Positions 3,294 to 17,115 of a DNA stretch of 18,852 nucleotides are shown here, in pieces (position 1 is the first letter of the stretch; the number at the start of each line of letters is the position of its first letter). Source of the stretch: a virus; IMG/VR virus record IMGVR_UViG_3300045988_060630, positions 1 through 18,852 of that record. The stretch is one strand, 5' to 3'. Below the pieces are notes generated by a model. It was not told the DNA's origin, searched no databases, and saw only the letters and a program-made list of their open reading frames with translations. The translations under genes were made by a program, and so were the position numbers.

Positions 3294-3696
3294 TGGCTTT
3301 GTATTGTCGGTTTACCGCTCCTTTTTCAAAAAATTGTTACACACCCAACAGGTTAAAAATAAAAAAGGGTACTACTTTCAGAAATCCAGCAACGCACCCA
3401 AAAACACTATTTTTCTAAAGTCCTATCTAAAAGCACATTATGCCTATGAAGATTTTGACTACATGATGAACCTTTATCAATTTGTTTCACAAGAATTTGA
3501 TAAAATTTCAATCAATGCTTTTTACAATATATGTTGCTATTTAGAAGAAAACAAAATCTACTCTCTTTCTTCTAATGCTCTTTACGATTGTTACGAGAAA
3601 TCAAAGAATCGTCAAAACGATTTAGAAAATCTCAATACAATCATCACACCATTAAAATTTTTAAAATCAACAAACGGAGATAAAACAAATGGCTAA
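3250..3696 (+). CDS. Hypothetical protein (148 aa, basic N-terminus)
   Basis: The ATG at 3250 follows a strong SD (AAAGGAGG, 3231-3238) located inside the 3' end of the polymerase gene, giving a 44-nt overlap. No recognisable motifs. Confidence 0.55.
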   Translation: MKQPLKSGKQITWFDGFVLSVYRSFFKKLLHTQQVKNKKGYYFQKSSNAPKNTIFLKSYLKAHYAYEDFDYMMNLYQFVSQEFDKISINAFYNICCYLEENKIYSLSSNALYDCYEKSKNRQNDLENLNTIITPLKFLKSTNGDKTNG

Positions 3697-4201
3697 AAAA
3701 CAAGCAAAGCATGAAAATTTTGACACAGTTGTAGCACAGGCTACCATCACAGCGACATCTAACAAGTCAGACGGTAAGTATAAGCAGAAAAAAGCGACTA
3801 AAGCCGTGTACCTTGTCCCAGCGACAGAAGAAGACGCTCAAAAGCTGATTGATTTTGGTTTACAACTTTACACACCAGATACAGAAAAAGACTCAGACGC
3901 TCGCCCTTACTTTATTGTTAAGGCAACCGAAAACGTGAAAATTTTCACAAGTGAAACGGACTTTGAAGAAGTCAACTTTGGTGTATCTTATGAAGACGTG
4001 AATCCAGAAACAGGAGAAATCACGGTTAAGAAAACCCCGAACTACAAAACAGAAGAACCCGTACACGTTGCGATTATGTTCGTAGAGGGTGGCGATAATG
4101 GAAATGACTTTTTCCGTCTCAATGCCCTTATGATGGCTGACACATTGACCCTTGAAGAAGTGCAACCCGTGAACCCGTTCGCTGGATTGTTTGGAAAATA
4201 A
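3689..4201 (+). CDS. Hypothetical replication-module protein; possible ssDNA-binding protein
   Basis: 170-aa ORF with GGAG upstream and a K-rich N-terminus, otherwise acidic. It lies next to the polymerase in the early operon. The SSB idea comes only from position, by analogy with phi29 p5. Confidence 0.6.
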   Translation: MAKKQAKHENFDTVVAQATITATSNKSDGKYKQKKATKAVYLVPATEEDAQKLIDFGLQLYTPDTEKDSDARPYFIVKATENVKIFTSETDFEEVNFGVSYEDVNPETGEITVKKTPNYKTEEPVHVAIMFVEGGDNGNDFFRLNALMMADTLTLEEVQPVNPFAGLFGK

Positions 4202-4229
4202 AAAAGAGCCTTCCCAATCGGGAAAGCTC
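4195..4229 (-). terminator. Rho-independent terminator on the minus strand (may also stop + strand readthrough)
   Basis: Stem 4206-4215/4220-4229 (10 bp, one mismatch, loop aatc). On the minus strand it is followed by TTTTTTATTTT (complement of 4195-4205). On the + strand no T-run follows directly. Confidence 0.65.
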
Positions 4230-4348
4230 CAATTATAAAGCGTTTTTCATGGCTTGAAAAGTCAGTTGGTTAGAATGACTCGCACCAGCAAGCACCCCTT
4301 GAGGTGTAACCATCTTGCCAGCACTAGACAAGCCTTGAAAAGCCTTAC
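4199..4348 (-). ncRNA. Candidate packaging RNA (pRNA-like), about 150 nt, minus strand
   Basis: It lies in the largest ORF-free gap of the genome (4202-4422), bracketed by a near-consensus minus-strand promoter (4355-4383) and the minus-strand terminator (4195-4229). Internal complementarity: 4251-4256 with 4329-4334, 4267-4272 with 4307-4312, 4293-4297 with 4302-4306. Its length is close to phi29-family pRNAs. The 5' end is predicted, not observed. Confidence 0.5.
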
Positions 4349-4354
4349 AAGTTT

Positions 4355-4383
4355 ATCATATCATACTTGCTTTATTTTGTCAA
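4355..4383 (-). promoter_or_regulatory. Near-consensus sigma-A promoter reading leftward (TTGACA-17-TGaTATGAT)
   Basis: On the minus strand the -35 TTGACA is the complement of 4378-4383, the spacer is 17 nt, TG is at 4363-4362, and the -10 TATGAT is the complement of 4355-4360. Confidence 0.7.
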
Positions 4384-4395
4384 GTATGATATACT
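4367..4395 (+). promoter_or_regulatory. Promoter for the structural (late) operon, extended -10 type
   Basis: TTGCTT (4367-4372), 17-nt spacer, TG (4387-4388), TATACT (4390-4395), 27 nt upstream of the ATG at 4423. It overlaps the leftward promoter within a 12-bp perfect inverted repeat (4358-4369/4381-4392). Confidence 0.6.
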
Positions 4396-4422
4396 TTGTT
4401 TAAAAATTGAAAGGAGAGGGCT

Positions 4423-4713
4423 ATGACCTCACAAGAATGCCTAGCAGTGCTAGACGCTGCAATGGCAAAAGTCGGAAACGATGAAGAAATTGAGAGCCTA
4501 ACGGCTGACTTGATTGACATCAAGGCTTTTGTCGGAGAAGTTGACACAGTTGTCTCAGTCTTGAATGAAGACGTTGAGCGCCTAAACTTGAAAAACGGTA
4601 ACTTACGTTCAGCTAATAACGAACTTTACCGTCGTTTAGGACAGCAAGATGAAATCATGAAACAAGCACAAGAAGACATGAGCGTAGTATCAGCAATCAA
4701 TGCTGTTATTTAA
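4423..4713 (+). CDS. Putative scaffolding protein (96 aa, acidic, helical)
   Basis: Strong SD (AAAGGAGAGG). It is the first gene of the structural operon, upstream of the capsid gene, and its size and helical/acidic character resemble phi29 gp7. The call rests on position and composition. Confidence 0.55.
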   Translation: MTSQECLAVLDAAMAKVGNDEEIESLTADLIDIKAFVGEVDTVVSVLNEDVERLNLKNGNLRSANNELYRRLGQQDEIMKQAQEDMSVVSAINAVI

Positions 4714-4730: not shown

Positions 4731-4955
4731 ATGAAACCATTTTCAAAATCAATTAACTGGTATCCTAACAACGCACTAGACGCACTCAAGGACGAACCAG
4801 AGACAGTCGCAGAAGTTACACCGCCAGCAGTTATGCTTGCTGACACACCAGCGCAGGAAGTTCCAAATTATCCAGCGCAAGCCCCAGCAAGTGAAGTTGA
4901 GGGCGTAGAAATGAATATTGACCACGAAAACATCGTAGAAGAGGGAGAAGAATAA
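4731..4955 (+). CDS. Hypothetical highly acidic Pro/Ala-rich protein (74 aa)
   Basis: I count 16 Asp+Glu against 3 Lys and no Arg. There is a weak AGGA SD, and the stop lies 1 nt before the capsid ATG. Confidence 0.55.
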   Translation: MKPFSKSINWYPNNALDALKDEPETVAEVTPPAVMLADTPAQEVPNYPAQAPASEVEGVEMNIDHENIVEEGEE

Positions 4956-6054: not shown

Positions 6055-6066
6055 AGGCTGACCAAG

Positions 6067-6093
6067 GGCGGGCAATAGCCCGCCTATTTTATT
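6067..6093 (+). terminator. Rho-independent terminator after the capsid gene
   Basis: 7-bp all-G/C stem ggcgggc (6067-6073) / gcccgcc (6078-6084), loop aata, followed by tattttatt. Confidence 0.8.
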
Positions 6094-10414: not shown

Positions 10415-11166
10415 TGGCTTTACACTTAAAATTTTCAACCTCAACAAATGCCAACGTGGAAAACTTTGGGACAGGTGTACCACCTTGGACGCAAGCATAC
10501 GCCAACGCTTGGCAGTTCTCAGGAGACACAGACTATGGTTATATGACCAATGGCAATACGACCTATATACAGTACGGGCAAAATGACCCGTCTGTATGGG
10601 CGTCAATGCGTTTCTGGTGCGAAAGCGTGGAAATCCTAGAAGAGACAACCAACGCAGACAACTCTATCACAGCTAAAATCAGAGTAAAAGCGCTTTTTTG
10701 GTGGTCAAAACGGGTCAGCTCAAATGCTGGGTATCGGGTAGAGTATGACATCAGGGTAAACGGTCAGACTATCTGGACGTTTAGCGGTTACACAACCGAT
10801 GAAGTGATTAAAAATGACGAGAGTTCTCAAGAGTTTACCGTCACTATACCAGCCGAGGGCAGTTCCTCTGCCTCCGCCTTAAATATCAGCGTCAGCTATC
10901 CAGACGGGCAATACTCAAACAATTCATTTTATGTGGGTATGTTTCTATACAATCCTAATAAGAAGAGTATCAAGCCGTGGGCTATCCGTAAGAGCGGAAT
11001 CTTTAAGACCTTAAACCGTCCATCGGGTATCTTCCAACAGAGAAAAGGCAGTTGGAAAGACATCAGCGCCCAACCCTCAAACGCAGTCGGGCAAGCAGTC
11101 AGCGCACCGCACAGCATGAGAAAGTCGGGTCAATGGATAGGACAAGGACAGATAGGACAACAATAA
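10414..11166 (+). CDS. Putative tail/receptor-binding structural protein (250 aa)
   Basis: TAATG stop-start overlap with the upstream gene, with GGAGG upstream. The sequence is Trp/Tyr/Asn-rich and beta-type. The C-terminus has three degenerate RK(S)G.W motifs. A terminator follows. Confidence 0.6.
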   Translation: MALHLKFSTSTNANVENFGTGVPPWTQAYANAWQFSGDTDYGYMTNGNTTYIQYGQNDPSVWASMRFWCESVEILEETTNADNSITAKIRVKALFWWSKRVSSNAGYRVEYDIRVNGQTIWTFSGYTTDEVIKNDESSQEFTVTIPAEGSSSASALNISVSYPDGQYSNNSFYVGMFLYNPNKKSIKPWAIRKSGIFKTLNRPSGIFQQRKGSWKDISAQPSNAVGQAVSAPHSMRKSGQWIGQGQIGQQ

Positions 11167-11167
11167 G

Positions 11168-11192
11168 GGAGGGTTTCAGCCCTCCTATTTTT
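11168..11192 (+). terminator. Rho-independent terminator
   Basis: Stem ggaggg (11168-11173) / ccctcc (11180-11185), loop tttcag, followed by tattttt. Confidence 0.7.
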
Positions 11193-11204
11193 AAAGGAGA
11201 GACT

Positions 11205-12695
11205 ATGCAAGAATCTACTAAAATATGGCTTTATGCAAAAAGCCCGTTTAAAAATGACTATGCTAATGTACTCAATTTTGAGACAAAAGAAGCTATGGAG
11301 GATTTTTTCACGAAGAAGAATCCGCATATAGAAATTGTATACGAGTATGACAAGTTTCAATATACACAAAGAAACGGGTCAATTGTAGTTTCTGGACGGG
11401 TAGAGAAATATGAAAATGTAACGTACATGAGATTTATTAACAACGGTAGAACCTACTATGCCTTTGTCTTTGACGTGCTTTATATCAATGAAGACGCTAC
11501 ACGCATTATATATGAAGTGGACGTATGGAACACCTACCAGCACGAACTAAAGGCGCTTAACGTGATTGGACAGGTGGAGCAACAGACATTGCCTAATGAG
11601 TTGTGGGCGCTGAAAGACAGTCAGCAAGGTTTTTCAGTTGGGACGAAGTACGCTACACGGGCTGGAGAGGTTGGGATAGATACAGAGTGGCTTGTAGTCG
11701 TGGCAAAGCCTACTATAAAGATGACAACCAAGGCAAACAGACCTGTAAATATGAGTTATTCAGGTATGCAGAAAACGTTTAAATACTTTTTTATCCCTGT
11801 AAATTTGAAAAGTGGAGCGTCCAGACCGTTTATTTTCCAAGGCAAAAAGTATGACAGCTTTTACCTTGAAAACCTTTATAAGCACCTTTTCGGGTTGAAT
11901 CAAGACGGCAGTAGCACCGTAAACCAGATTGTAAACATGTATTTAAGCCGAGATATTGGGGTAAAATACAAGGAAACAACCGATGGCGACAAGACCTATA
12001 TAGAAATCTTGTCTAACATCACAGGAAGCGTTGCAGAAATTGGGCGAAAAAACACTCGAAACTATCGCACATCAGGAAGCAGTTCAAGCGGTGGAAGTGG
12101 TAGCACCAACGAAGAGGGCGACACATCGACAGAGGAAAGCCGTGTTAGGTTAGTAACCCGAATTATTAAAAAGCTAGTGCCAGACGCTACGGCGGAGGGT
12201 ATCGCTGGAATTATCGGAAACTTTTCAGCAGAAAGCAACGTCACAGCCAAGAAATACGAAGCGGACTATGCTACAGGCTACGAGTACGAGAAAATTGAAT
12301 CAGAGCCAACAGCAGAAAACCTCATGGGAAGCTGGGGCGCTTTTGCTAGTCTCTACTCTATCAGCTTGAATGAAGCTGGATATAGAGGGAGTGACGGTAA
12401 GCACTGGATAGGTATTGGGATAGGTCAGTGGACGGGTCCAAGGGCAGAGGAGCTTTTGAACTTTGCAAGAAGTCAAGGGAAATCATTGTGGGACTTTAAC
12501 CTACAATTTCAATTCATGAACCAAGAAAGCAGAGCGGACACGTTTAGACGTGTAGCAAGTTCTACAGCAAGCGCCAGCACTAATGCAAGCGACTTTATGA
12601 ACAACTGGGAGGGGGTAGCCTATAAGGAAGCGGAACGCATAGAGCAGGCAAACGCATGGCTATCTACTATTCAAGACGAACTACAGAAAGGGTAA
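11205..12695 (+). CDS. Tail knob protein, N-terminal half (phi29 gp9 N-domain-like) fused to a phage tail lysozyme domain
   Basis: The true start is the ATG at 11205 (AAAGGAGA SD); the 11052 extension crosses the terminator. The N-terminus (SPFKNDYANV..., YMRF.N..RTYYAFV........T.I.YEVDVWNT) matches my recollection of phi29 gp9. A Ser/Gly linker (SGSSSSGGSGS) follows. The C-terminus (IAGIIGNFSAES ... GIGIGQWTGPRAEELLNFA ... QFQFM) has the phi29 gp13-type tail lysozyme signature. Confidence 0.8.
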   Translation: MQESTKIWLYAKSPFKNDYANVLNFETKEAMEDFFTKKNPHIEIVYEYDKFQYTQRNGSIVVSGRVEKYENVTYMRFINNGRTYYAFVFDVLYINEDATRIIYEVDVWNTYQHELKALNVIGQVEQQTLPNELWALKDSQQGFSVGTKYATRAGEVGIDTEWLVVVAKPTIKMTTKANRPVNMSYSGMQKTFKYFFIPVNLKSGASRPFIFQGKKYDSFYLENLYKHLFGLNQDGSSTVNQIVNMYLSRDIGVKYKETTDGDKTYIEILSNITGSVAEIGRKNTRNYRTSGSSSSGGSGSTNEEGDTSTEESRVRLVTRIIKKLVPDATAEGIAGIIGNFSAESNVTAKKYEADYATGYEYEKIESEPTAENLMGSWGAFASLYSISLNEAGYRGSDGKHWIGIGIGQWTGPRAEELLNFARSQGKSLWDFNLQFQFMNQESRADTFRRVASSTASASTNASDFMNNWEGVAYKEAERIEQANAWLSTIQDELQKG

Positions 12696-17084: not shown

Positions 17085-17115
17085 AGCTAGTAGAAAATTT
17101 CTACTAGCTGTTTTT
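17085..17115. terminator. Bidirectional rho-independent terminator between the convergent operons
   Basis: Perfect 10-bp stem agctagtaga (17085-17094) / tctactagct (17100-17109) with loop aaatt, flanked by an A-run on the left and gttttt on the right. The stop codon of the minus-strand ORF (17104-17106) lies in the right arm. Confidence 0.85.

Follow-up and report, generated by a model that had tools for sequence, protein, structure and literature searches.

A minus-strand structured RNA gene with prohead RNA-like architecture next to the scaffolding gene of a Cp-1-like phage genome

The RNA gene in the gap between orf7 and the scaffolding gene

The stretch of DNA analysed here, hereafter the window, comprises the 18,852 nucleotides (nt) of the IMG/VR virus record IMGVR_UViG_3300045988_060630. 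Judged by its sequence, its source is a Cp-1-like podophage of pneumococci or oral streptococci. Across positions 4100-4500 its identity is 97.8% with Streptococcus phage Cp-1 (Z47794), likewise 97.8% with SOCP, and 92.3% with Cp-7, and in this region a Cp-1 coordinate equals the window position plus 453. The gap at 4202-4422 is flanked by orf7 (3689-4201) and the scaffolding gene (4423-4713). That this gap carries a real structured RNA gene, read from the minus strand, is considered practically certain, and analysis of its fold, conservation and setting indicates that the RNA probably functions as a prohead RNA (pRNA). No RNA other than pRNA is known to serve as a structural component of a viral motor for DNA packaging.

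In the preliminary description of this DNA, the gap had been regarded as free of open reading frames (ORFs) and as the site of an antisense transcription unit of about 150 nt, a candidate pRNA. The gap is indeed the largest among the long ORFs counted as genes in the window, although it does contain a single ORF, a mechanically called frame of 49 amino acids with a TTG start at 4254-4403 (+). A coding role for this frame was rejected, as it is interrupted by in-frame stops or frameshifts in most relatives. The proposed unit itself was borne out: its strand, boundaries, promoter, terminator and closing helix hold and are kept in every relative, and its interpretation as a pRNA is supported by what follows.

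Relatives were collected by protein-anchored scans of IMG/VR, yielding 117 loci with 56 distinct gap sequences, with identities between 72% and 99%. Assemblies of human oral metagenomes commonly contain Cp-1-like genomes; one locus, L234 (ENA OOPL01000007, human oral metagenome), encodes a scaffolding protein identical to that of the window. Distant phages were added by means of a pattern drawn from the conserved hairpin, together with a scan of metagenome contigs using the scaffolding-protein alignment. The distant loci L118, L136, L267 and L269 have scaffolding proteins 44-46% identical to that of the window, and the pattern, taken from the helix D hairpin, recovered L118 and L136. A search with the L118 scaffolding protein recovered only L118 itself. 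L118 and L136 come from IMG sample 3300012991, and L267-L269 from ERZ6503xx assemblies. A covariance model, termed R1, was constructed from 50 distinct minus-strand sequences. In the complete genomes searched (the window, Cp-1 and Cp-7) it gave a single copy apiece, and in 88 of 88 aligned loci (65 distinct RNA sequences) one strong match, located on the minus strand and directly 5' of the scaffolding gene.

The signals that delimit the gene are listed in Table 1. The minus-strand promoter, previously singled out as the best in the genome, ranked first of 54 promoter-like sites in a scan of the window (11/12 plus TG). Its -10 element is kept in relatives, as TATAGT or TATAAT variants, and the distant homologs possess promoters on the same strand: TTGACA-17-TATAAT in L118, TTTACA-17-TGtTATAAT in L136 and TTTACA-17-TGaTATACT in L267. 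A conserved (U/C)AAGGC motif marks the start of helix A, its first base lying 8 nt past the -10 in the window, L118, L136 and L267, and the closing helix begins at 4349/4348, near the predicted +1. The hairpin and tail noted earlier about 150 nt downstream of the promoter were reported by a terminator scan as an 11-pair hairpin at 4230-4205 (minus) followed by TTTTTTATTTT. Changes on both sides were found in 5-7 of 10 terminator stem pairs, depending on which of two alignments was used. Past the same stem the plus strand reads CAATTATAAA, with no T-run, so the T-run serves the minus strand only. The U-tract overlaps the last codons of orf7 and its stop codon (4199-4201), and the hairpin begins 4 nt past the stop. 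The early operon therefore meets the end of the RNA gene head-on, and since the plus strand lacks a T-run there, early transcripts may read through the hairpin.

Table 1. Window coordinates of the RNA gene, its structural elements and the adjoining promoter
Feature	Position	Strand	Details
RNA promoter	4355-4383	minus	-35 TTGACA 4383-4378, 17-nt spacer, extended -10 TGaTATGAT 4363-4355 (TG 4363-4362, TATGAT 4360-4355)
Predicted RNA 5' end (+1, G)	4348	minus	7 nt past the -10 hexamer; placed by promoter geometry
Helix A, 5' strand	4329-4349	minus	pairs with 4234-4256
Junction strand UCUA, between helices A and C	4325-4328	minus	unpaired in consensus and single-sequence folds
Helix C, 5' strand	4314-4324	minus	11 base pairs (bp) with 4282-4292
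5'-side bulge AUGGUUA, equivalent of the CE loop	4307-4313	minus	UGGUUA 4312-4307 complementary to the D loop
Helix E hairpin, loop CAAG, caps the C arm	4293-4306	minus	stem 4306-4302/4297-4293
Helix C, 3' strand	4282-4292	minus	pairs with 4314-4324
Helix D hairpin, 11-nt loop UUCUAACCAAC	4259-4281	minus	stem 4281-4276/4264-4259, 6 bp
Helix A, 3' strand	4234-4256	minus	pairs with 4329-4349
Bulge/D-loop contact	UGGUUA 4312-4307 / UAACCA 4272-4267	minus	6-bp Watson-Crick complementarity
Intrinsic terminator, 3' domain of the RNA	4194-4230	minus	stem 4230-4221/4214-4205, U6AU4 4204-4194
Likely scaffolding/late promoter, back-to-back	4367-4395	plus	-35 TTGCTT 4367-4372, TG 4387-4388, -10 TATACT 4390-4395 (TTGCTT-17-TGaTATACT); context, outside the RNA

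Fold, covariation and strand of the predicted transcript

The RNA folds into a domain I of 116 nt (4349-4234), consisting of a three-way junction and the helix that closes it by pairing the 5' and 3' ends. From 5' to 3' the elements are helix A, the UCUA strand, helix C, the bulge, helix E, helix D, UU, the 3' strand of helix A, a short linker and the terminator hairpin. Helix A contains 20 pairs, with 96-99% of cells paired; an A4335/A4250 mismatch and a 2-nt bulge on the 3' side (4243-4242) break its continuity. Two-sided changes include 4329/4256 (GC, AU, UA) and 4334/4251 (GC, AU). The pairing of GGCUUG (4334-4329) with CAAGCC (4256-4251), likened in the preliminary description to the pRNA A helix, constitutes the inner portion of the closing helix, and five of these six pairs covary. 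In helix C, two-sided changes were observed at 7 of 11 pairs in a MAFFT alignment and at 9 of 11 in a larger model-fitted alignment; the window sequence itself has G·U pairs here at 4323/4283, 4322/4284, 4320/4286 and 4319/4287 on the minus strand. The small helix proposed at 4293-4297/4302-4306 also exists, as helix E, and U4302·G4297 is a G·U pair in the minus-strand RNA only, as had been remarked. Its stem changes from CACC/GGUG to UAGC/GCUA in L118 and a CG pair becomes GC in 8 sequences. The helix D hairpin is the most conserved segment of the RNA (99.7-100% paired, with UA replaced by CG in 4 sequences), and the bulge is invariant or almost so in close relatives. Furthermore, each of five divergent homologs, folded singly, adopted the same shape.

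The support for this fold was evaluated in several ways. As a single sequence, 4199-4348 gave a fold z-score of -5.1 for the minus strand. The plus-strand fold gave -6.6; inverted repeats can fold on either strand, and the two single-sequence values are both significant. The MAFFT alignment, comprising 50 distinct sequences, had 98.4% of its pair cells paired and 20 pairs with two-sided changes (191 cells). Neither the observed pairing nor the covariation was equalled in any of 500 column-shuffled controls, and when the structure was slid by 1-3 columns only 40-53% of cells were paired. In the model-fitted alignment of 65 distinct sequences, 98.8% were paired and 35 of 59 pairs were changed on both sides (342 cells), so the covariation among relatives that had been named as a check is present. 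A chance origin of the fold is excluded.

It should be noted that the alignment also identifies the strand. On the minus strand, the supported helices contain 446 G·U cells and 6 A·C cells, and the selected molecule is therefore the minus-strand RNA. Read as its plus-strand mirror image, the structure keeps 83.5% pairing instead of 98.4%, because G·U cells become A·C mismatches. The RNAalifold consensus energy was -94 to -95 kcal/mol for the minus strand and -72 kcal/mol for the plus strand. Moreover, the alternative central helices of the plus strand displayed no two-sided changes, only mismatches and one-sided changes. These three lines of evidence settle the question in favour of the minus strand, and the positions of promoter and T-run agree.

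The contact between the bulge and the D loop deserves separate consideration. The segments 4267-4272 and 4307-4312 had been described as an internal helix. Their complementarity is real and covaries, but the helix is not nested: it joins a bulge to a hairpin loop and is thus a kissing or pseudoknot pairing. The pairing is kept at 98.5-98.7% in two alignments (98.5% in the 65 distinct sequences), with UA replaced by AU in 6 sequences and GC by AU in 1. L136, L267, L269 and three members of the L060 clade have a GGUAA/UUACC or UGGUAA/UUACCA version, and L118 has a GAUUA/UAAUC version. Within the L060 clade, L062 and L261 retain the U-A version in both loops. Since the versions of the contact differ in step, with L062 and L261 keeping U-A, two-sided changes must have occurred at a minimum of two positions of the contact. 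By our estimate, chance alone would produce a perfect 6-mer match between loops of 7 nt and 11 nt about 0.003 times. The pairing probably forms between molecules rather than within one.

Comparison with phi29 pRNA and competing explanations

In phi29, the AACC of the bulge pairs with the GGUU of the D loop in a neighbouring molecule, and in this manner the RNA builds a ring on the prohead. The reference used for comparison was a 120-nt phi29 pRNA sequence that matches EU771092 201-320 at 100%; the Rfam family RF00044 (Phage_pRNA) scored it at 145.4 bits, serving as the positive control. The known system nearest to the present RNA is the phi29-family pRNA (RF00044) of phi29, PZA, SF5, B103, M2/Nf and GA-1.

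The resemblance begins with the phage itself. As had been thought, both motor proteins are encoded: Pfam identified a Phage_connector GP10 domain (437 bits) and a Podovirus_Gp16 packaging ATPase domain (141 bits) among the window proteins, in addition to Phi29_MCP, the phi29-type major capsid protein, and a protein-primed type B DNA polymerase. Like phi29, the phage is a terminal-protein podophage whose connector is of the gp10 type and whose ATPase is of the gp16 type. The N-terminus of the predicted connector, MSYKNYKRHLGK, is basic; the N-terminus of phi29 gp10, which binds pRNA, is basic too. At the level of the RNA, domain I is in both cases closed by pairing of its 5' and 3' ends and measures 116 nt here and 117-120 nt in phi29. 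A three-way junction follows, one arm of which comprises the C helix, a bulge on the 5' side only and the E hairpin, while the other is the D hairpin. The consensus line of RF00044 and the phi29 fold give the A helix, C helix, 5'-side bulge, E hairpin and D hairpin in the same order as here, and the minimum free energy folds of phi29 pRNA and the window RNA have a common topology. In both, bulge and D loop are complementary (AACC/GGUU in phi29, UGGUUA/UAACCA here), and across the phi29 family, as in the present set, the sequence of the contact varies by lineage and stays complementary. Finally, phi29 pRNA is a small RNA with a strong promoter of its own, as the present one is predicted to be, and both carry an extra hairpin domain at the 3' end.

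There are also differences. The two strands of the contact are placed the other way round from phi29: the bulge supplies the GGUU type and the D loop the AACC type. The contact measures 6 bp instead of 4, and the D loop 11 nt instead of 5. At the junction, 4 unpaired nt separate A from C and 2 separate D from A, whereas in phi29 the unpaired bases (UUU) separate C from D.

Several observations weigh against a pRNA. The Rfam search that had been proposed as a check failed to detect the family: RF00044 gave no match at its gathering level (100 bits) in the window, L118 or L136, and none at E<=10 on 801 nt or 171 nt of the window. In the reverse direction, direct homology was likewise rejected, as R1 scored phi29 pRNA at 6.3 bits with filters off, a meaningless value. 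The covariation of the loop pairing rests on few events, at two pair positions, and a pseudoknot within one molecule could account for the pairing. The gene lies inside the genome and converges with the early genes, whereas phi29 pRNA is located at the left end (nt 320-147 of the phi29 genome) and is co-directional with them. Within the gap, the Cp-1 (Z47794) and Cp-7 (LK392619) records annotate only plus-strand -35/-10 boxes and hairpins. A scan of the whole window with Rfam at gathering thresholds returned nothing, and at E<=10 the 801-nt and 171-nt segments gave only sub-threshold matches (best 23 bits against a cut-off of 65 bits), mostly on the terminator hairpin. With neither Rfam similarity nor a match of R1 to phi29, homology to phi29 pRNA is not demonstrable and the likeness is architectural, in line with the earlier remark that primary similarity is lacking. 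As modelled here, the RNA has the architecture and context of a pRNA and lies outside RF00044 in the present form of that family.

The main competing explanation is that the transcript is a small regulatory RNA of the minus strand rather than a part of the motor, the pairing of bulge and loop being an intramolecular pseudoknot. It might act as an antisense RNA or roadblock that stops read-through of the early operon into the late genes, or in trans, its conserved loops pairing with a messenger RNA of phage or host. The convergent position of the gene, with its terminator abutting the orf7 stop codon, would suit such a role, as would the promoter, the back-to-back overlap of which with the scaffolding promoter suggests cross-talk. 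The lack of similarity to the Rfam pRNA also fits, and high conservation of loops is often seen in the seeds of regulatory RNAs. However, a pure antisense RNA or roadblock has no need of a covarying three-way junction of 116 nt, and each of the two conserved loops is the complement of the other and varies with it, which points to self-contact between RNAs rather than to an external target. The entire architecture, moreover, copies that of phi29 pRNA in a phage with phi29 motor proteins. A regulatory RNA is accordingly considered unlikely, though it is the strongest of the competitors. Other self-associating RNAs also use kissing loops, and the present RNA shares with them two conserved and mutually complementary loops that change together; it differs from them in that both loops belong to a single molecule with exactly the pRNA layout, and in occurring in a phage with the type of motor that depends on pRNA.

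Much less probable still is a functional plus strand, whether as a small RNA or pRNA between the annotated promoter and hairpin or as the 5' leader of the scaffolding messenger RNA. In its favour are the plus-strand boxes of Z47794 and LK392619, a "terminator" that the Cp-7 record places at the inverted repeat of the promoters, and the good single-sequence fold (z = -6.6). Against it, 446 G·U cells turn into A·C mismatches on that strand while 6 change the other way, the consensus energy is about 22 kcal/mol worse, the helices found only on that strand are without two-sided changes, and strong promoter and T-run both lie on the minus strand. In addition, a plus transcript from the annotated Cp-1 promoter would begin in the middle of the structure, because its -10 (window 4271-4276) sits in the D loop. 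An element acting as DNA without a functional RNA (protein-binding palindromes, an early/late insulator, or a replication or packaging signal) would fit a set of inverted repeats that look alike on both strands at the early/late boundary, yet it is hardly credible, since palindromes give no asymmetry of G·U over A·C (446 to 6 here), protein sites are kept by sequence and not through compensatory changes such as those in 35 pairs, and a full promoter and terminator bracket the RNA in all lineages.

The possibility of a pRNA elsewhere in the genome was considered as well. R1 detects a single copy per genome, and the alternative candidate, an RNA from the terminal repeats, was rejected: its fold in Cp-1 lacks significance (z = -0.89), and six genomes give one long terminal hairpin and no three-way junction. 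In Cp-1 (1-236 and 19108-19343) and at the Cp-7 ends, the annotated promoters of the terminal repeats point outward. About 75 nt at the ends of the Cp-1 and Cp-7 repeats are conserved, with a long G·U-rich hairpin possible, and the rest is 81-86% conserved.

The idea that Cp-1 has a pRNA is old, since PMC6266182 refers to a proposal of 1996; this agrees with the remark in the preliminary description that a pRNA-like region had been suggested for Cp-1. As cited there, a "putative pRNA of Cp-1" was put forward by Martin, Lopez and Garcia (1996, J Virol 70:3678); to the extent that this citation conveys it, phage group and idea are the same as here. PMC6266182 also states that a model of the Nf/GA-1 pRNA could not reliably locate that of Cp-1, and its supplements give no coordinates for a Cp-1 pRNA. 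The GenBank records of Cp-1, Cp-7 and SOCP contain no RNA feature, those of Cp-1 and Cp-7 coming from the laboratory that made the 1996 proposal, and the SOCP paper does not discuss the gap. According to a 2024 review (PMC11476376), pRNA is, as far as is known, unique to phi29 and related Bacillus phages. The minus strand, the boundaries, the fold supported by covariation and the covarying loop contact thus appear to be absent from the public records checked.

Neighbouring features and biological implications

The RNA gene is internal; it converges with the early operon on one side and stands back-to-back with the scaffolding-gene promoter on the other. As a simple promoter scan did not report 4367-4395, that element is put forward here as a likely promoter. 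Positions 4381-4395 are almost invariant among relatives, with three one-base variants in 5 of 57 sequences. The -35 boxes of the two promoters are 5 bp apart, and both promoters share an 11-bp inverted repeat, TATCATACTTG/CAAGTATGATA, so that CAAGTATGATAT leads into an extended -10 on each strand. It is this repeat that the Cp-7 record labels a terminator. The two promoters may compete or be co-regulated.

Further features were observed elsewhere in the window. The scaffolding gene is followed, ahead of the capsid gene, by an ORF of 74 amino acids at 4731-4955 (+), which the Cp-7 record includes as ORF9 and the Cp-1 record lacks, and a clean terminator lies at 6066-6085, 3' of the capsid gene. 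At 11052-12695 (+) there is one ORF of 547 amino acids where the Cp-1 record of 1996 has two genes, orf17 and orf18. Because Cp-7 too has a single tail protein, that record may hold frameshift errors at this site. A perfect 11-bp hairpin at 17085-17109, with T-runs on both strands, lies between the convergent lysin gene and the minus-strand genes of the right end and looks like a bidirectional terminator.

If the RNA is a pRNA, the following process can be envisaged. Transcription would start about 7 nt past the near-consensus extended -10, near 4348, and would stop at the intrinsic terminator near 4197. The first 116 nt would form a long 5'/3' helix closed by a three-way junction, the arms of which would be an 11-bp helix with a 7-nt bulge on the 5' side and a small capping hairpin, and a 6-bp hairpin with an 11-nt loop. 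Pairing of the bulge of one RNA with the loop of its neighbour would then assemble a ring at the portal vertex of the prohead, where the phi29-type connector and capsid would hold it in place. The gp16-type ATPase, which would pump the terminal-protein-linked DNA into the head, would dock at the free end of the long helix. Transcription, the exact ends of the RNA, binding to the prohead and the role in packaging are what we infer from the evidence above.

The broader reading is that ring-forming prohead RNAs extend beyond the phi29-like phages of Bacillus, the Cp-1 group having a pRNA that is unrelated in sequence and that carries co-evolving kissing-loop "alleles". This is held to be reasonably likely, with somewhat less assurance than the pRNA function itself. 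The Rfam pRNA family covers only phi29 and related Bacillus phages, while the pRNA-like gene of the Cp-1 group was found in dozens of contigs from human oral metagenomes. If the reading is right, the pRNA class would extend to another phage family and another host genus, and an RNA of the packaging motor would either be ancestral to the protein-primed podophages or have been kept in them repeatedly. The Cp-1 assignment and annotation as published would then need to be corrected to the minus strand in the gap between orf7 and orf8, and the gene, absent from the Cp-1, SOCP and Cp-7 records, would be added to the genome annotation. Exact coordinates, strand and mutations would also be at hand for testing the idea directly in Cp-1 or SOCP, phages that can be propagated on S. 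pneumoniae and S. mitis. pRNA is also a workhorse of RNA nanotechnology, to which the Cp-1 group would contribute new natural sets of kissing loops. Above all, a second and independent sequence family would become available for asking which features of the RNA the motor really requires.

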